This document shows, in pieces, positions 547 through 5,774 of a stretch of DNA of 5,774 nucleotides. The notes under the pieces were generated by a model that was given only the letters and a program-made list of their open reading frames with translations, was not told the DNA's origin and did no database searches. The stretch's first letter is position 1. Each line of letters opens with the position of its first letter. The stretch is from an uncultured Gammaproteobacteria bacterium (GTDB lineage: Bacteria; Patescibacteriota; Microgenomatia; Daviesbacterales; UBA10151): NCBI GenBank assembly GCA_964522265.1, contig CAZFVS010000070.1, positions 1-5,774 of the forward strand, written 5' to 3'. The translations under genes were made by a program, and so were the position numbers.

Positions 547-1638
547 ATGGAAGCACATCCTGTTCCACAAAATGTCACCAGTTTTGAATTCCATTTAGTT
601 GGGGATATGACCTTAAAACAGTTTGGGTATCTGGCTACGGGTTTGAGCTTTGCTTATCTGGTTTTTTTTATTTTTGCCACCCCGGCCCCTTATATTGCCT
701 GGCCTATTATTATCACATCCTCTTTAATAGGAATCATGTTTGCCTTCCTGCCAATTAGGGAACGTCCGCTGGATCATTGGGTGGGAGCATTTTTTAATGC
801 CATCTTTAAACCAACCCAATTTATTTATAAATCTGCTGTTGTGATAAAAGAGGATCCTTTTTTCCAAAAAAGGTTAAGTTTTTACCTTTCGCAATCAACC
901 AATGAACCATTAGGTAAACCTTCATGGGGAATCACCCCAAGTGTTTCTTTGCCTGCTTCAACACCAAGCATCAACCCACCACAACCAAACCAGCCCAAAA
1001 CCAGCCAGCCTCCTGTAGCTGAACAGCCGCCCACAAAAGAGGTTAATTTTTTTGAAAAACACAAACTACCAAGCACCAAAGACTTAAAAGAAACAGTTGA
1101 ACTTGCTAAACAGGCTCAGACGATCCAGGTAAAAATCATCGAAACAGAAAAACAGCTCAGCCAGGTAAAATCTCAGGCCTCAGAACCAGGAGCAGATCCC
1201 ACAAGATTCGAAAAAGACTTCCGTATTATTTTGGATAACCTGCAAAAACTAAACAACGAGGCTAGTGAGATTTCAAAACAATTGGCTAATCTTTCCAAAA
1301 CTCCTACAGAAAAGGTTTTTACACCTGCTATTACAGCCAAAAGTATTCCCACTATCAGGCTAACTTCGGTCGAGAATATCTTAAACGGCATCACCACTGA
1401 CTCTCAGGGGAATTACATCGAGGGGGCAATATTGGTTGCCCATGATAAACAGGGATTACCTGTAAGGGCATTAAGAACTAATAAGCTGGGTCAATTTATC
1501 GCCGCCACACCTCTCCCGAATGGTGTTTATACCTTAACCTGCGAAAAGGATAATCTTATCTTTGATACCATCAGAGTAGAACTCAACGGCCAGGTTCTGC
1601 AGCCTGTGATGATTTCAGCAAAGAAGGGTGGGGTATGA
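547..1638 (+). CDS. PrgI/VirB3-like T4SS membrane protein with long C-terminal extension (Pro-rich linker, coiled coil, CarboxypepD_reg-like beta-sandwich)
   Basis: The N-terminus (PVPQNV..FEFHLVGDMTLKQFGYLATG) is followed by a hydrophobic hairpin of two predicted TM helices (aa ~26-70, nt 622-756), as in PrgI-family/VirB3-like proteins. The gene also sits upstream of a VirB4 gene. Residues ~125-165 are P/Q/S-rich and ~178-252 are heptad-like and charged. Residues ~278-360 (nt 1378-1626) read LNGITTDSQGNYIEGAILV...TNKLGQFIAATPLPNGVYTLTCEKDNLIF...VELNGQV, which matches the carboxypeptidase-regulatory-like domain pattern. The TGA stop overlaps the next start (ATGA). Confidence 0.75.
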   Translation: MEAHPVPQNVTSFEFHLVGDMTLKQFGYLATGLSFAYLVFFIFATPAPYIAWPIIITSSLIGIMFAFLPIRERPLDHWVGAFFNAIFKPTQFIYKSAVVIKEDPFFQKRLSFYLSQSTNEPLGKPSWGITPSVSLPASTPSINPPQPNQPKTSQPPVAEQPPTKEVNFFEKHKLPSTKDLKETVELAKQAQTIQVKIIETEKQLSQVKSQASEPGADPTRFEKDFRIILDNLQKLNNEASEISKQLANLSKTPTEKVFTPAITAKSIPTIRLTSVENILNGITTDSQGNYIEGAILVAHDKQGLPVRALRTNKLGQFIAATPLPNGVYTLTCEKDNLIFDTIRVELNGQVLQPVMISAKKGGV

Positions 1639-2447
1639 ATACTACACAAAATTTTTTACCAATAAAGGATATTAGAAATGACCTGATTGTTCTAAAAGAC
1701 GGAGGTGTCGCCTGTGTGGTTAAAACTTCCGCTGTAAATTTTGGCCTGCTTTCAGAAAATGAGCAACTCGCCATAATTTCATCTTTTGCAGGTCTTTTAA
1801 ACTCTTTATCGTTTCCTATCCAGATAATGATACGTTCGAAAAGACTGGATATCTCAAGCTATCTGGAAAAGCTTATCGCCGCCCAAAACGCGCAAAAAAA
1901 CCCCTTGCTTCGGGAGATTATGATCCGCTACCGCTCTTTTATTGAAAGTGTAATTAGGGAAAACGAGGTGTTGGATAAACAATTTTATATAACTTTATCA
2001 GTCTCATACCTGGAGCTGGGAGTTATTAATGATATCGAGAAACACTTCACTAAAGCTATGACCATACTCAACCCAAGAAGAGACCATATTATAAGACAGT
2101 TAGAAAGGATTGGACTCCGGGCAATACAGTTAAATAATGAGGGGTTAACCAGGCTGTTTTATGATATTTTTAATGAGATCAAACAGGAAGAAACCCAACT
2201 ACCGGTTGTCTTCCCTAAAACCCAGCAGCAAACTTCAAACCCTACCTTACCAGCCCCTGCTCCTGTACAACCAGAGAGAAAAAACCCTCCTCCCCAACCT
2301 CAACCCCAACCTCAACCCAAACAACCTATGCCTCAACCCTTACCTCAACAAACTGCCCATCTACAACAGCCTGTTGCAGTATATTCCAGTAATCGTTCCA
2401 TCCCTTTTGTTGTTGAAGAGCTGCCTGATGTATACAGCAGTATATGA
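1635..2447 (+). CDS. Hypothetical protein with VirB4-N-terminal-domain-like region and C-terminal (PQ)n low-complexity tail
   Basis: The 270-aa ORF is coupled by ATGA overlaps at both ends. Its N-terminus (QNFLPIKDIRNDLIVLKDGG...VNFGLLSENEQLAIISSFAGLLNSLSFPIQIMIRSKRLD...KQFYITLSVSY) follows the pattern of the N-terminal domain of Gram-positive-type VirB4 proteins. It also parallels SLNISMFIYPSTSKTVLD...RLGLYITVPVQ in the adjacent VirB4. There is no Walker motif, TM helix or signal peptide. The function is inferred. Confidence 0.7.
   Translation: MNTTQNFLPIKDIRNDLIVLKDGGVACVVKTSAVNFGLLSENEQLAIISSFAGLLNSLSFPIQIMIRSKRLDISSYLEKLIAAQNAQKNPLLREIMIRYRSFIESVIRENEVLDKQFYITLSVSYLELGVINDIEKHFTKAMTILNPRRDHIIRQLERIGLRAIQLNNEGLTRLFYDIFNEIKQEETQLPVVFPKTQQQTSNPTLPAPAPVQPERKNPPPQPQPQPQPKQPMPQPLPQQTAHLQQPVAVYSSNRSIPFVVEELPDVYSSI
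2286..2352 (+). repeat. Imperfect tandem hexanucleotide repeat (cctcaa/ccccaa) encoding PPPQPQPQPQPKQPMPQPLPQQ
   Basis: Direct reading gives cct cct ccc caa cct caa ccc caa cct caa ccc aaa caa cct atg cct caa ccc tta cct caa caa. It lies inside the 1635..2447 CDS and also produces the spurious alternative-frame ORF 2161..2472. Confidence 0.8.
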
Positions 2448-4291
2448 ATATACCTTTTCTTTCAAACTCTAAATCAAAACCTCAGCCCCCAAAGTGGCTG
2501 CTGGAAAACCAGGAAGGCGGCAAGCTTTCCATCCCCGATGTTTTAGCACCGGCAGAGATCGAAATTGATTTCTCTTTTATCCGGATAAACAACTCACTCT
2601 ACCGGTCGTTTTTTGTCTCTTCCTATCCGCGTTATATTGAACCAAATTGGCTTGAACCATTAATTGATTTTGATCATTCACTCAACATTTCAATGTTTAT
2701 ATACCCATCAACTTCTAAAACAGTTCTTGATGATTTAAAGAGGAAGATAGCTGAGATGGAGGCCACAATCCAAACAGATATAGAAAGAGGTAGGGCTGTT
2801 AATCCCGCAGTACAGGTCGCCCTGGATGACGCCAGAGAGCTTCAAGACCAGCTGGTCAAAGGTGCAGAGAGGTTTTTCAGACTGGGGCTTTATATCACTG
2901 TACCTGTCCAAAAAAAAGAGCTTTTTGAAACCCTGGAGGACACATCAAAACAGGACAATTCTAAAAAAACCCGTTTTTCAAAAACAATAGAAGACCTTAA
3001 TAATGTTTCCAAACTGGTGGAATCCACCCTTGGTTCAATTTCTATTACCGCCCGTGAAACTACCTTACAGATGGAAGACGCCTTTATCTCCACCCTACCG
3101 CTGGGAATAGATAAGCTCACACTAAACCATAATATGGACACCACCTCACTTGCCACAACCTTTCCTTTTACAACCTCTGAACTGACAGCAAATGAGGGTA
3201 TAATGTATGGGATCAATGAACACAACGGCTCCCTGGTTATCTTTGACAGGTTCTCCCTTGAAAATGCCAATTCTGTAGTTTTTGCCAAATCTGGTGCCGG
3301 GAAATCTTATTTCGTTAAACTGGAAACGCTCAGGTCTTTAATGTTTAACACCCAAATCATCGTGATTGACCCAGAACATGAGTATATTAAACTGGCTGAA
3401 GCGGTCGGGGGGGAATATATTAATTTTTCTTCAGAATCCCCTGTTAAAATTAACCCTTTTGACCTGTCTAATGTCTTTGAAAGCGGTGAAAATGAACTTG
3501 GCCGGAAAATATTAACCCTAACCGGTTTTTTGAAGTTGGTTTTAGGGGAGCTGACATCATCTCAAGCAGCTGTTTTAGACAGAGCCTTGTCTGCTGCCTA
3601 CAGACTCAAGGGGATTACCATGGATGCTAAAACCCAGCATTTACCTCCACCACTCATGGAAGATCTCTATAAAGTACTTATCGGCATGGAGGAGCCTAAC
3701 GCCAAAGAGATTGCATTTAGACTGGAACGGTTTATTAAAGGATCCTTGGCCGGAATATTTTCCGCTCCTTCTAATATAAATTTAAACAGCCAACTGGTTG
3801 TTTTTTCAGTAAGGGATTTGGCTGATCAGCTCCGTCCTTTAGCGATGTACCTCATCTTAGATTATATCTGGACTAAAATAAGGACTAATTTAAAAAAAAG
3901 GCTTTTAATAGTTGATGAAGCATGGTATATGATGAAAAATGCCGACAGCGCAGAGTTCCTGGTTGAGATGGCAAAAAGAGCCAGGAAATATTACCTCGGG
4001 GTCACTACTATCACCCAGGATGTAGAGGATTTTCTGGAAGGAGACAGGGGTAAAGAGATTATTTCCAATTCTTCTATCCAGACACTCTTAAAACAGAGCC
4101 CTTCTTCGATAGATAAAATTGGCCAGGTATTTAACCTGTCAGAAGGGGAAAAACATCTGCTTTTGTCTGCCGGAGTAGGCCAAGGCCTTTTTTTTGCAGG
4201 CCCGTCACATGTAGCAATCCAGATTGTTGCTTCACCGGAAGAACACCAATTGATCACCTCCAACCCTGCTGAACTTATAGCTAAAAACTAA
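2444..4291 (+). CDS. virB4: VirB4/TraC-family type IV secretion ATPase (AAA_10/DUF87-like P-loop NTPase)
   Basis: The 615-aa ORF has Walker A AKSGAGKS (aa 281-288, nt 3284-3307) and Walker B LLIVDEAW (aa 487-494, nt 3902-3925). Downstream it has the RK-YYLGVTTITQ (sensor/arginine-finger region) and LLKQ...LS-GE motifs typical of VirB4/TraC. The N-terminal domain carries the YPRY/-WL--LI pattern. The gene lies downstream of a PrgI/VirB3-like gene. Confidence 0.93.
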   Translation: MNIPFLSNSKSKPQPPKWLLENQEGGKLSIPDVLAPAEIEIDFSFIRINNSLYRSFFVSSYPRYIEPNWLEPLIDFDHSLNISMFIYPSTSKTVLDDLKRKIAEMEATIQTDIERGRAVNPAVQVALDDARELQDQLVKGAERFFRLGLYITVPVQKKELFETLEDTSKQDNSKKTRFSKTIEDLNNVSKLVESTLGSISITARETTLQMEDAFISTLPLGIDKLTLNHNMDTTSLATTFPFTTSELTANEGIMYGINEHNGSLVIFDRFSLENANSVVFAKSGAGKSYFVKLETLRSLMFNTQIIVIDPEHEYIKLAEAVGGEYINFSSESPVKINPFDLSNVFESGENELGRKILTLTGFLKLVLGELTSSQAAVLDRALSAAYRLKGITMDAKTQHLPPPLMEDLYKVLIGMEEPNAKEIAFRLERFIKGSLAGIFSAPSNINLNSQLVVFSVRDLADQLRPLAMYLILDYIWTKIRTNLKKRLLIVDEAWYMMKNADSAEFLVEMAKRARKYYLGVTTITQDVEDFLEGDRGKEIISNSSIQTLLKQSPSSIDKIGQVFNLSEGEKHLLLSAGVGQGLFFAGPSHVAIQIVASPEEHQLITSNPAELIAKN

Positions 4292-4296
4292 CCAAA

Positions 4297-5774
4297 ATGG
4301 CTGCCCAAAACCAAGCTAACTTAAACCCTGAGCATATCAGCCTTTATAAAGAAGCCCGCAATTTTGTCTTTGATTACACCACCCACAATTCTATCTACCA
4401 AAGAAGTTTAATTGACCGCCTGATTAAACCGGGAGAGGTTTATGCCCTTTACCCGATAAAAAACATTGTATTTTTTCTTGTTAAATTATCTCCACCCCCT
4501 GAACTGCTTTTTGGCGCTAAACCACCTTTTTCTTACGTAAGGATCCATCCTTTTTTAAAATACTTTGGAGGAAAGGATATTTATAACAGGTTAAATGATA
4601 TAGCTGGCGGTAAATTCCAACCATTTTCTGACCAAACAGTGACTGAAGTTGAGGAGTTTAATAAATTACCTGAGGAGGTAAAAGATAAAAAACTGGGGGC
4701 TGAGGTTTCCAAAACAATAGGTATAATACCTACAGTCGGTATAGTACCAACCCCCAGCTTAGAAGAAAAAACACCGCCCAGAATACCCCAAAGGGTTAAT
4801 ATAGGCCGACTGCCTATCCCCTCTTTTGTTAAAGATTTAGGTGTTTGGAGTTTAATCCACACCGGAAATTTAGTAAACAGACACCCTAAGGTCTCTACGC
4901 CTTTATCTGTAGGAGGAACTGTCTGGCTTTTTATGAATGCTACAGGTCAAGGCCCGTACAGCTTGATTTCTGGATTACTTGCTGCTGCCGGAACCAGTCT
5001 TGCCATGGAATACTTGTCTGCCCCAAGACAACCTCAGCAGATCGGTGGTGAAGACAAACAATACAACAGCGGTGGCAACTTCCAGCCACCATGGCGGTCA
5101 AAGACTTCAAGGGCTTTAGGAAGGGGTGCGGGCAAGGCAGGGGCTAGGGCTGCAGGAGGATTGACCAGAGCAGCTGTACCGCTTTTGGCAAACCCGGTAA
5201 CCTGGGTTGTGATCGGAATAATTATTTTTATTCTCCTTTTCTTTTTTCTGATATTTAATAAAAATGCCTCTATTTTTCCGCCTTTTGGGGAATTTACTGC
5301 CACAACCGCCACCCCAAGCGCCCAACTTAAAATAGTTAAAACTGCACCACCCCAGGTGCCGAACAGCAGTCTAATCCCCTATGATATTACTGTCATATAT
5401 ACCGGTACGGGTACTGCTGATATTGAGGTTTATGATAAAGTGCCGGAGAAAACAGAGTTTGTAAGCAGTAATCCAGATGTTGCCCCTGATTCAAACGGCA
5501 TTCTGAAGTGGAATCTTTTTAAAACACCTTCTAATACACCTCAAAAAATGACTTTTACGGTTAAACCTACCCAGGATGATATTTATGTCCAAAATACCGA
5601 TTATGGTGCCAAAATAACAAGTGTTACCGGGGGGGGAGGCGGCGGCGAGATAGCTGCCTGCACCTTCTTCAGGGAAGGAGATACTACTGTAACTGGCGGA
5701 GTATCAGGATTAAAATTTAATATACCTGAGTGGCCTGCTTTGATAAATGAAGTTACTTTAAAAGTCGGTGTCCC
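4297..5774 (+). CDS. 3'-truncated ORF (not in supplied track): single-pass membrane protein with ~300-aa cytoplasmic N-domain, basic R/G/A patch, TM helix, extracellular DUF11/CARDB-like domain and Gly6 linker
   Basis: I translated frame 1 by hand from ATG 4297, the first ATG after the in-frame stop at 4282-4284 and 5 nt after the virB4 stop. It stays open for 492 codons to the window edge. The basic patch WRSKTSRALGRGAGKAGARAAGGLTR precedes the TM helix VTWVVIGIIIFILLFFFLIF (aa 301-320, nt 5197-5256), so positive-inside topology puts the C-terminus outside. Nt 5326-5628 encode LKIVKTAPPQV..LIPYDITVIYTGTGTADIEVYDKVPEKTEFVSSNPD...GILKWNL....QKMTFTVKP, which fits the DUF11 'conserved repeat domain' pattern. 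The start codon is inferred, with no obvious SD. Confidence 0.8.
   Translation, partial: MAAQNQANLNPEHISLYKEARNFVFDYTTHNSIYQRSLIDRLIKPGEVYALYPIKNIVFFLVKLSPPPELLFGAKPPFSYVRIHPFLKYFGGKDIYNRLNDIAGGKFQPFSDQTVTEVEEFNKLPEEVKDKKLGAEVSKTIGIIPTVGIVPTPSLEEKTPPRIPQRVNIGRLPIPSFVKDLGVWSLIHTGNLVNRHPKVSTPLSVGGTVWLFMNATGQGPYSLISGLLAAAGTSLAMEYLSAPRQPQQIGGEDKQYNSGGNFQPPWRSKTSRALGRGAGKAGARAAGGLTRAAVPLLANPVTWVVIGIIIFILLFFFLIFNKNASIFPPFGEFTATTATPSAQLKIVKTAPPQVPNSSLIPYDITVIYTGTGTADIEVYDKVPEKTEFVSSNPDVAPDSNGILKWNLFKTPSNTPQKMTFTVKPTQDDIYVQNTDYGAKITSVTGGGGGGEIAACTFFREGDTTVTGGVSGLKFNIPEWPALINEVTLKVGV
5629..5636 (+). repeat. G8 homopolymer tract inside the 4297..>5774 CDS (first part of the Gly6 linker)
   Basis: Read directly: acc ggg ggg gga ggc ggc ggc. 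By eye it is the longest G run in this AT-leaning window. Confidence 0.9.

Follow-up and report, generated by a model that had tools for sequence, protein, structure and literature searches.

Type IV secretion systems (T4SSs) of Patescibacteria are MPF_FATA-like and lie near dnaA, and VirB1 homologues have rarely been detected near virB4 outside Paceibacteria; the survey that reported this left open whether other glycosidases take the VirB1 role (PMC12102498). In one tested system the apparatus is essential for epibiotic growth, and the Patescibacteria systems are relaxase-poor (PMC12102498, PMC12857230). In Ca. Southlakia epibionticum ML1, virB4 is directly followed by wall-hydrolase genes; they encode peptidase and lysozyme homologues that, in the survey's account, are reported to be indispensable for growth as an epibiont (PMC12102498, citing Wang et al. 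2023). Our comparison with this organism follows the survey's description only; it belongs to Saccharimonadia, a different class from the Microgenomates group of the locus analysed here.

Enterococcus faecalis pCF10 encodes PrgK directly after prgJ, a VirB4 gene of the CD1110 family that itself follows prgI. PrgK, a VirB1-like protein of the DELTA class, has a poorly predicted, basic intracellular N-region of 250-300 aa, then one transmembrane (TM) helix at residues 254-274 and, outside the cell, its hydrolase domains (PMC11323569, PMC12857230); the glycan-cleaving one, of the Phage_lysozyme2/phi29 gp13-like type, is flanked by LytM and CHAP domains. Membrane-anchored SLT-type domains also occur in VirB1-like hydrolases of the ALPHA class encoded in T4SS clusters, namely TrsG (pGO1) and TraG (pIP501), the TrsG cluster including TrsC (VirB3-like), TrsD and TrsE (VirB4) (PMC12857230). 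TrsG has an N-terminus of ~20 residues before its TM helix, a canonical SLT domain fused to CHAP and no DUF11 domain, and trsF lies between trsG and the VirB4 gene. VirB1, which represents the GAMMA class in Gram-negative T4SSs, is a soluble periplasmic protein.

We analysed a 5,774-nt stretch of DNA (the window) in which the gene directly downstream of virB4 occupies the same position as prgK, and its product likewise has a basic N-region of about 300 residues, one TM helix and a predicted hydrolase domain beyond it. The protein is likely to be a VirB1/PrgK-type membrane-anchored peptidoglycan hydrolase of a Patescibacteria monoderm-type (MPF_FATA-like) T4SS, in a Microgenomates/Daviesbacteria-like member of that group. 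On this reading the component is of a familiar type, but so diverged that standard domain models fail to recognise it. It differs from PrgK in carrying a GH23 SLT/GEWL-like domain after a DUF11 domain, in the placement of the cysteine peptidase in a separate downstream gene of the homologous locus, and in belonging to a chromosomal, relaxase-poor Patescibacteria system (PMC12102498). It differs from TrsG in its long N-region, its DUF11 domain and its direct adjacency to virB4, and from VirB1 in its predicted membrane anchor.

Gene order and reading frame downstream of virB4

The + strand of the window encodes, in order, a PrgI/VirB3-like membrane protein extended at its C-terminus by a beta-sandwich (547..1638), a TrsD-like protein similar to the N-terminal domain of VirB4 (1635..2447), a VirB4-like T4SS ATPase (2444..4291) and the gene under study (4297..5774). 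The first of these matches Pfam PrgI (E 2.2e-6, 28.5 bits, cut-off 27) and, below cut-off, a CarboxypepD_reg-like family (E 1.8e-4). The second, which recalls the TrsD gene of the TrsG cluster, has a sub-threshold NCBIfam TrsD match (E 2.6e-6, 27.4 bits, cut-off 200) and, also below threshold, matches two VirB4 models over their N-terminal parts, and its homologue in a Daviesbacteria locus (L001) has a precomputed TraC-like Pfam match. The ATPase reaches 373.7 bits with the NCBIfam CD1110-family VirB4 model (cut-off 325) and matches Pfam P-loop_TraG, AAA_10 and DUF87. No Rfam families were found in the window. A bAvd-like gene at 170-535 raised the idea of a DGR, which we rejected on finding no template/variable-repeat-like repeats within the window.

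The ORF at 4297-5774 is a real gene. The virB4-like frame ends at 4291 (TAA 4289-4291) and the next ATG lies at 4297-4299, leaving the gap of 5 nt given in the original prediction, and translation agrees with its reading of a large frame that runs off the edge: frame 1 of the + strand is open from 4297 to 5774, with 492 sense codons, no stop and 2 spare bases. By our own arithmetic, the chance of 492 stop-free codons is ~1e-13 at a stop frequency of ~0.06 per codon and a GC content of ~42%. A word-indexed protein search with the full query returned a sole close homologue, a full-length protein of 647 aa from a Daviesbacteria MAG (P0001; 69% identity); the window accordingly holds the 5' 76% of the gene (492 of ~650 codons), cut by the window end. 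Against the homologous gene of locus L001, differences at codon positions 1, 2 and 3 number 102, 80 and 202, with 114 synonymous and 140 non-synonymous codon changes, and this third-position excess of substitutions relative to the P0001 gene identifies the + frame, rather than the antisense ORFs, as coding. There are three such antisense ORFs of at least 60 aa in the interval (4581-4862, 5034-5312 and 5116-5325), not two as had been stated, and we judge all of them, including the overlapping pair spanning 5034..5325 on the - strand, to be spurious, since the + frame fits the substitutions and has conserved homologues. The + frame is absent from the ORF track because the track omits ORFs that run off the sequence end; tracks of this kind can conceal a window's largest gene.

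The order PrgI-like, TrsD-like, VirB4 and target gene is kept in 12/12 related loci from Daviesbacteria and Levybacteria MAGs, which form a biased sample because they were recovered with one peptide pattern from one clade; VirB4 was confirmed by Pfam in 4 of the 12. The target gene thus lies within the T4SS cluster directly after virB4 both in the window and in every related locus recovered, a conservation for which a check had been proposed, even as the encoded proteins range from 443 to 1074 aa and change in module content. With a gap of only 5 nt, virB4 and the gene probably share a transcript, and their translation may be coupled. In the homologous locus, the next gene encodes a secreted C39-like cysteine peptidase, and the locus adjoins dnaN/dnaA among housekeeping genes. 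If the gene in the window continues like its homologue, ~155 further codons encoding PASFIAGFLRVEC...GAMQF...AYYG are expected, followed by a C39-like peptidase gene.

The surroundings of the homologous locus could also suit a general housekeeping autolysin that remodels the wall in growth or division and merely neighbours origin-proximal T4SS genes. A short form of the SLT-like domain discussed below (P0068, 284 aa) occurs in a locus without VirB4, and the domain is therefore not exclusive to T4SSs, which would also fit an autolysin. However, the tight packing after virB4, the constant order in all 12 loci despite changing lengths and modules, and the shared position with PrgK in pCF10 make this reading highly improbable, and together favour a hydrolase that would function with the T4SS.

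The N-terminal 150 aa as a query of the word-indexed protein search gave zero matches, missing even P0001, an outcome that carries no information on relatives, and a profile of the C-terminal domain gave just 3 short proteins there. JGI metagenome contigs, searched for an exact 50-nt stretch and scanned with a protein pattern, yielded no close relatives, nor was a match to the C-domain found by tblastn against 72,556 plasmids. PDB sequences gave chance-level matches only, none of them significant, both to the whole protein and to the profile of its C-domain. The later per-region statistics are drawn from alignments read by eye.

Membrane topology and the N-terminal region

The protein contains only one strong hydrophobic peak, V301-F320 (Kyte-Doolittle 3.17), corresponding to a TM helix at aa 301-320, VTWVVIGIIIFILLFFFLIF (5197..5256, + strand). 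An AlphaFold model of aa 1-345, built on a 9-sequence alignment, has a mean pLDDT of 45, and its sole confident part is a helix at residues 300-321 (pLDDT 80-84), in agreement with the helix placed there by the original prediction. The basic R/G/A segment that had been noted before the helix is likewise evident (aa 266-291; 5092..5169, + strand), with a net charge of +7 over aa 260-300 vs +1 over aa 321-345. By the positive-inside rule, a basic flank marks the cytoplasmic side of a membrane helix, and the charge of +7 on the N-side therefore places that side in the cytoplasm. We infer a bitopic topology, N-in and C-out, in which a membrane anchor is followed by a predicted hydrolase domain C-terminal to the TM helix.

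Immediately at the membrane, the motif PLLANPVTW (aa 295-303; 5179..5205, + strand) is conserved across the family (alignment A6) and resembles the juxtamembrane LILKNPISW of PrgK. Alignment of A6 with the PrgK N-region matches exactly at this motif (hhalign, 25 columns, E 5.4e-4, probability 30%), and the best BLASTP HSP against PrgK falls at the same place (E 0.36). Outside the motif, no sequence homology between the two proteins was detectable with hhalign or BLASTP.

The region N-terminal to the helix had been described as a soluble cytoplasmic domain of 300 aa that belongs to no recognisable family. The second half of that description stands, as aa 1-340 gave no family from Pfam, NCBIfam or PHROGs, but a single compact domain does not: aa 1-~300 fall into a conserved N-module of ~105 aa, a linker that evolves fast, a weakly hydrophobic Gly-rich helical stretch that is again conserved and, next to the membrane, the basic segment. 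The N-module (aa 1-105; 4297..4611, + strand) is 81% identical to P0001 in amino acid sequence and is predicted to be cytoplasmic, with no signal peptide-like hydrophobic stretch by hydropathy, no match in Pfam, NCBIfam, PDB or PHROGs, and a pLDDT below 50 in the AlphaFold model. Its profile is weakly similar to those of N-modules elsewhere in the family (hhalign E 2.2e-4, probability 45%) and has no similarity by hhalign to the 'type B' N-modules of a further four (P0003, P0080, P0060 and L008). The charged, Pro-rich linker that follows (aa ~106-170; 4612..4806, + strand) is variable, its identity to P0001 being 53% at the aa level and 59% at the nt level, and relatives have long low-complexity insertions in the equivalent region. 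Beyond it, an amphipathic conserved segment with an 'NRHP' motif leads into a helical, weakly hydrophobic stretch rich in Gly; the two (aa ~171-241; 4807..5019, + strand) can be aligned across 9 family members, consistent with representative-search matches that start from about aa 150-170. Hydropathy here peaks at 1.26 in the protein of the window and at 1.76 in P0001, and one relative (P0107) has weak Gly-zipper Pfam matches at the equivalent place (E 3.6e-4), making a membrane-associated hairpin possible.

The N-terminal ~300 residues would remain cytoplasmic or lie against the inner side of the membrane, where docking of the enzyme to the VirB3/TrsD/VirB4 translocon is a speculative role for them. 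The N-region is in this sense a candidate link of the hydrolase to the cytoplasmic ATPase, and its PrgK counterpart is as little understood.

On the other side of the membrane, a DUF11 Ig-like beta-sandwich (aa 344-432; 5326..5592, + strand) is the predicted extracellular spacer. The domain is found where an Ig-fold of this type had been anticipated: Pfam PF01345 matches the window protein with E 3.3e-5 and 24.6 bits, which equals the gathering cut-off of 24.6 exactly, and P0001 with 27.8 bits. The DUF11 region matches many giant DUF11-repeat proteins. It is missing from several syntenic homologues, among them a 480-aa protein (L011) that runs from its TM helix through a Gly-rich linker into the SLT-like domain. 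The Gly6 linker to a further domain, also foreseen, lies at aa 445-450 (5629..5646, + strand).

A divergent SLT/goose-lysozyme-type domain

The window ends within the domain that follows the linker, encoding the first 42 residues of a divergent SLT/GEWL-type (GH23) domain of ~195 aa (5647..5774, + strand), and these residues are 100% identical to P0001. By reference to P0001, the candidate catalytic Glu lies ~16 residues past the window end, and the catalytic part of the domain is presumably present in the source organism as it is in the homologue. The domain measures ~195 aa in P0001 and in more than 50 relatives, and a profile search with it returned many matches among proteins of 280-1700 aa, with E down to 1e-92. 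In these relatives wall-hydrolase modules of the Amidase_3, Amidase_2, M23, CHAP or C39_2 type often follow the SLT-like domain.

The AlphaFold model of the P0001 C-domain (pLDDT 90.5) has a lysozyme-like alpha-helical fold, and structural comparisons with it place the predicted domain, as a divergent member, in the fold class of SLT/goose-lysozyme-type (GH23) lytic transglycosylases. In the PDB every top Foldseek match is a lytic transglycosylase or a g-type lysozyme (phiKZ gp144, Slt/Slt70, MltF and phi6 lysin; probability 0.85-0.99), and in BFVD the top matches are phage proteins of the SLT/LT_GEWL kind (E from 1.7e-3, with probabilities reaching 1.00); across both databases the matches are weak, with E between 1.7e-3 and 0.1 and TM-scores of 0.35-0.45. 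By the same comparison, VirB1, Slt70, MltF, phiKZ gp144 and goose-type lysozyme share the fold class of the C-domain. Four conserved Cys residues and an N-terminal 'CTFYRGGD' extension set the domain apart from the matched structures, which have neither. With the muramidase domain of PrgK, the C-domain profile has no detectable homology (hhalign probability 1%).

Pfam SLT (PF01464) matches at E<=1 in 19/28 members of the domain family (best 3e-5) and SLT_2 in 5, and the reported SLT scores of 16.2 and 19.3 bits lie below the gathering threshold of 21.3, which most members are too divergent to reach; P0001 itself has no Pfam SLT match. In an alignment of 28 domains (A2), E59 in 'LRVE[C/S/T]' and Q89 in 'GxMQF' are invariant in 28/28, both residues lying beyond the window end. 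From knowledge of the family and the weak Pfam alignments, we take these to correspond to the SLT catalytic Glu (E-S/T) and the GLMQ-type motif. The C-domain and SLT/GH23 enzymes thus have in common a catalytic-type Glu at a helix end, then Ser/Thr/Cys, and a GxMQ motif, and glycan-cleaving activity is predicted for the domain.

The original prediction of a bitopic envelope or surface component of the virB4 apparatus is borne out by the TM helix, the basic flank, DUF11 and synteny, and an SLT/GEWL-type domain after the Gly6 linker now makes a VirB1/PrgK-type cell-wall hydrolase a better reading than a surface component of a general sort. A surface adhesin or scaffold, in which DUF11 is the functional part and a catalytically inactive lysozyme-like domain only binds glycan, could draw on the prevalence of DUF11 in surface proteins and on the regulatory, non-catalytic role of the outer LytM and CHAP domains of PrgK (PMC11323569), yet it is barely credible given the invariance of the catalytic-type Glu and GxMQF in all 28 aligned domains and the several syntenic homologues that do without DUF11.

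As a T4SS-associated hydrolase, the protein would be anchored by its single TM helix, while DUF11 and the Gly linker would hold the SLT/goose-lysozyme-type glycan-cleaving domain out in the wall. Local glycan cleavage, probably with the secreted C39-like cysteine peptidase, could then open the wall for T4SS assembly or passage. The gene family would in that case fill the VirB1-type role in the Daviesbacteria/Levybacteria branch; alignment A2 is a usable profile for annotators, and the predicted enzyme with its candidate catalytic Glu is a concrete target for experimenters.

The near-identical tract at the window end

The last part of the window (5575..5774, + strand) is almost identical to the DNA of the homologous gene in the Daviesbacteria MAG, with 2 substitutions and one 3-nt indel in ~200 nt, and identity falls abruptly to ~65% upstream of it. 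Such a pattern is the signature of a recombination tract or of an assembly break, and it suggests either a recent module exchange or a break of the latter kind.

The tract bears on the question of whose wall is cut. A surface enzyme that cleaves host peptidoglycan, instead of or besides that of its own cell, would allow the T4SS or a pilus to reach the host membrane, with swappable hydrolase modules tracking host wall chemistry. The modules after the SLT-like domain do vary between relatives, the 3' part of the gene was apparently swapped recently between lineages otherwise ~70% identical, the DUF11 spacer and Gly linker could lengthen the reach of the enzyme, and the need for the T4SS in epibiotic growth and its paucity of relaxases would suit a host-directed role. 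We nevertheless regard such a role as unlikely, because one TM anchor and a spacer of ~110 residues restrict reach, the wall on which PrgK acts, with the same anchored architecture, is that of the donor itself (PMC11323569), and an assembly artefact may account for the near-identical tract. Decidedly unlikely is the specific form in which a T4SS-docked, tethered lytic transglycosylase on an Ig-like stalk is the epibiont's tool for breaching host walls, its 3' hydrolase cassette exchanged by recombination to match hosts; were it true, the ~200-nt tract would be the footprint of cassette exchange. The near-identity is confined to the 3' end: the rest of the gene is 59-83% identical to the homologue in nucleotides, and the end of virB4, though identical in amino acids, still shows frequent synonymous differences.

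An open frame beyond virB4 and its predicted topology

On translation, frame +1 runs from 4297 to 5774 as 492 codons with zero stops, a length for which our own arithmetic gives a chance probability of ~1e-13 at ~42% GC. The preceding virB4 ORF (2444-4291) ends with a TAA at 4289-4291 and the ATG occupies 4297-4299, leaving a gap of 5 nt. The large edge-running ORF of the original prediction is thereby confirmed; it is absent from the ORF track because the ORF lister omits frames still open at the edge of the sequence. One close full-length relative was found, the 647-aa protein P0001 (69% identity across the whole query), encoded at locus L001 on a 104-kb contig of a Candidatus Daviesbacteria MAG (Microgenomates group, Patescibacteria). 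Codon-by-codon alignment of the two genes gave 102/80/202 differences at + frame codon positions 1/2/3; of the altered codons, 114 are synonymous and 140 non-synonymous. The codon-position pattern indicates purifying selection on the + frame. Antisense ORFs at 4581-4862, 5034-5312 and 5116-5325 are unsupported, since the substitutions fit the + frame.

A Kyte-Doolittle scan of the product revealed a single strong hydrophobic segment, V301-F320 (peak 3.17), and no N-terminal signal-like segment. Net charge is +7 over aa 260-300 and near-neutral after the hydrophobic segment. By the positive-inside rule the basic flank of a TM helix faces the cytoplasm, which would place the N-terminal 300 residues inside and the remainder outside. 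Beyond the helix, Pfam reports a DUF11 Ig-like domain at aa 344-432 (E 3.3e-5, exactly at cut-off; 27.8 bits in P0001), a region that matches many giant DUF11-repeat proteins in profile searches. A Gly6 linker (aa 445-450; nt 5629-5646, + strand) follows, and the window stops 42 residues into another domain. The helix, the Ig-fold segment and the linker to a further domain were all as predicted.

Of the claim for a 300-aa cytoplasmic domain of no known family, the second part stood, as no family match was found in Pfam, NCBIfam, PDB or PHROGs. A single compact domain was not borne out: conservation is patchy along aa 1-330, with identity to P0001 of 81% over aa 1-100, 53% over aa 101-200, 60% over aa 201-260 and 86% over aa 261-330, and relatives carry long low-complexity insertions in the middle of the region. 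The AlphaFold model of the N-region (pLDDT 45) is unusable except for the TM helix. From ~aa 170 the family shares an amphipathic 'RHP' segment, a Gly-rich weakly hydrophobic stretch, a basic stretch and 'PLLANP' before the helix; the Gly-rich stretch is Gly-zipper-like in the relative P0107 (E 3.6e-4) and, if it formed a membrane hairpin, would keep the N-in/C-out topology. Profile comparison weakly relates the first ~90 residues to the N-modules of one subgroup of relatives (E 2.2e-4, probability 45%) and finds no similarity to those of another. Judging by position and analogy, the N-region may dock to the VirB3/TrsD/VirB4 complex.

A divergent lysozyme-like domain at the C terminus

A profile search against 1.84 billion representative proteins returned 1237 hits at E<=1e-3, and the C-terminal ~195 residues proved to be a widespread, well-conserved domain in proteins of 280-1700 aa (E down to 1e-92). 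Across 28 aligned domains from relatives, the Glu of 'LRVE[C/S/T]' and the Gln of 'GxMQF' are invariant, and a 'YYG/YF' motif and Cys residues are conserved. The C-terminal domain of P0001 was not recognised by Pfam; among the aligned domains, weak Pfam matches were obtained to SLT (19 of 28, best E 3e-5) and SLT_2 (5). The domain was modelled by AlphaFold with a mean pLDDT of 90.5, and its top Foldseek hits in the PDB were phiKZ gp144, Slt/Slt70, phi6 lysin, GH23 chitinase, MltF and goose-type lysozyme (probability 0.85-0.99, E 0.02-1, TM about 0.4), while BFVD yielded SLT/LT_GEWL phage proteins (E from 1.7e-3, probability up to 1.00). We conclude that this is a divergent domain of the GH23 lytic-transglycosylase/goose-lysozyme type, the sequence evidence being sub-threshold and the structural scores modest; it plausibly defines a lysozyme-fold subfamily not captured by Pfam. 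The candidate catalytic Glu, whose position is known from P0001, lies ~16 residues past the window end and is therefore extrapolated from P0001 to the window organism. The 42 residues of the domain inside the window are 100% identical to P0001.

This identity extends to the DNA. Over ~200 nt, window 5575-5774 differs from L001 11300-11497 by 2 substitutions and one 3-nt indel. The boundary is sharp and coincides with the end of the DUF11 domain: immediately before 5575 identity falls to about 65%, and across the remaining gene regions it is 59-83%. For its last ~80 residues VirB4 also matches the L001 protein at 100%, yet the DNA there has frequent synonymous differences, so constraint on the protein does not by itself account for the tract. 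One explanation is a recent exchange of the 3' hydrolase part between the window and Daviesbacteria lineages, which would fit the modularity seen in relatives. The other is that the window end, which falls inside the tract, is an assembly break or a chimera from a segment common to co-occurring populations.

Further wall-hydrolase modules sit C-terminal to the SLT-like domain in relatives: Amidase_3 (P0003 and the L006 protein), Amidase_2 (P0030 and the L005 protein), Peptidase_M23 (P0012), CHAP (P0060) and a C39_2-like Cys peptidase (P0030, with a similar 'CGPTS..AMV' segment in P0053). By eye, five other relatives (P0080, P0085, P0107, P0114 and P0138) keep the N-region, TM helix and DUF11 and have another lysozyme-like or a classical SLT-like domain in its place. 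The C39_2-like peptidase fused in P0030 is a separate gene in L001, where it follows that of P0001 and has a signal peptide. Gram-positive VirB1-like proteins combine SLT and CHAP (PMC12857230), and the arrangement in L001 suggests an analogous pair of glycan-cutting and peptide-cutting activities. Downstream of the homologue in L001 (11962-13565; compare L005 9233-10242), the secreted C39_2-like peptidase is joined by a protein of 136 aa and a TM-anchored Big_5-like protein of 161 aa, and these may be further T4SS envelope parts. The Big_5-like protein of L001 is 46% identical to its L005 counterpart, and BLAST detects no resemblance to the L011 gene in the same position.

Gene order at the T4SS loci

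All window genes lie on the + strand: a 23S-rRNA-IVP/bAvd-like protein (170-535; Pfam), a PrgI/VirB3-like protein (547-1638; Pfam PrgI, 28.5 bits, cut-off 27), a TrsD-like protein resembling the VirB4 N-domain (1635-2447; sub-threshold NCBIfam hits), a CD1110-family VirB4 (2444-4291; 373.7 bits, cut-off 325) and the target (4297-5774). The same PrgI-TrsD-VirB4-target order recurs in L001, where the next genes are the peptidase, two small ones and, on the opposite strand, dnaN/dnaA. The C-domain profile, used in a pattern scan over 185,579 species-representative genomes, yielded 12 loci, all from Daviesbacteria or Levybacteria-type MAGs (two labelled 'Gammaproteobacteria'), and in every one the domain gene directly follows PrgI-like-, TrsD-like- and VirB4-like-sized ORFs and precedes dnaN/dnaA; VirB4 identity was confirmed with Pfam in all four loci tested. 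Homologue length varies from 443 to 1074 aa. In the short ones, such as the 480-aa protein of L011, a basic N-terminus of ~45 residues leads to the TM helix, after which come a Gly-rich linker, the SLT-like domain and more C-terminal sequence. Because short homologues lack them, the long N-region and DUF11 are accessory; what stays constant is the membrane anchor, the SLT-like core and the location directly after virB4.

Several features of these loci merit mention. The two mislabelled-looking loci, L008 (CAZFYQ010000004.1) and L014 (CAYWKL010000022.1), have the ORF order of the Daviesbacteria/Levybacteria loci (PrgI-like-, TrsD-like- and VirB4-like-sized ORFs, target homologue, dnaN/dnaA-sized ORFs), and their 'uncultured Gammaproteobacteria' labels or binning are probably wrong. 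The window PrgI/VirB3-like protein, 363 aa against 117 aa for pCF10 PrgI, includes a Pro/Gln-rich linker and a stretch resembling a coiled coil, ends in a CarboxypepD_reg-like beta-sandwich (E 1.8e-4, below cut-off), and is conserved in L001 (66% identity). VirB4 appears split: the 270-aa TrsD-like protein, which is similar to the VirB4 N-domain and has a (PQ)n-rich tail, overlaps the start of the 615-aa ATPase gene by 4 nt. The bAvd-like gene, encoding a four-helix-bundle protein of the 23S-rRNA-intervening-sequence/bAvd-like kind directly upstream of the T4SS genes, has no counterpart at that position in L001, and no DGR-like repeats were found within the window. A caveat to the constant position after virB4 is P0068, a short form of 284 aa that consists of a TM helix and the same SLT-like domain. 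Its gene (2827-3681 of L018, a Logan SRR22387896 contig) has no VirB4 nearby and is flanked by genes for two large proteins without Pfam match, one of 746 aa (weak reprolysin-like hits) and one of 1245 aa, so that the domain also occurs in another, uncharacterised setting.

Comparison with known T4SS hydrolases

The T4SS of Patescibacteria has been described as MPF_FATA-like, with TrsD, PrgI/VirB3 and VirB4, usually near dnaA and mostly without relaxases; VirB1 homologues were seldom detected near virB4 outside Paceibacteria, and other glycosidases are left possible in the role (PMC12102498). That study also describes essential peptidase and lysozyme homologues just downstream of virB4 in S. 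epibionticum (PMC12102498). On pCF10 the order is prgI, prgJ (VirB4, CD1110 family), prgK, and in PrgK an intracellular N-domain, poorly modelled by AlphaFold, is joined through a TM helix (254-274) to LytM, muramidase and CHAP domains outside the cell (PMC11323569). PrgK thus shares with the target its position after VirB4 and its layout but not its domains, which argues that the target works like a VirB1/PrgK-class hydrolase. The glycan-cleaving domain of PrgK is of Phage_lysozyme2 type, whereas that of the target homologue is divergent GH23-like, and comparison of the C-domain profile with PrgK was negative (probability 1%). TrsG of pGO1 differs again, with a short N-terminus, TM helix, canonical SLT and CHAP.

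The probable envelope component of the VirB4 apparatus is supported, and sharpened to a likely T4SS peptidoglycan hydrolase, by its position after virB4 in 12/12 related loci and its SLT-like C-domain. We consider it likely that the target is a membrane-anchored peptidoglycan hydrolase of the Patescibacteria T4SS, best filed as a new architectural variant with N-region, TM helix, DUF11, divergent GH23 domain and a peptidase encoded in trans. Its mechanism class is already well known and its key catalytic part lies beyond the window; the family plausibly supplies the 'missing VirB1' for the Daviesbacteria/Levybacteria branch.

The only local likeness to PrgK is a juxtamembrane motif, 'AALILKNPISWVV' in PrgK and 'AAVPLLANPVTWVV' in the window, which hhalign matched over 25 columns (E 5.4e-4, probability 30%) and at which the best BLASTP HSP also falls (E 0.36), a lead toward homology rather than proof. 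The family-conserved PLLANPVTW (aa 295-303, window 5179-5205) resembles LILKNPISW of PrgK (pCF10 prgK region, aa ~246-258), and the motif may be an element for anchoring or docking that Gram-positive-type VirB1-like proteins have in common.
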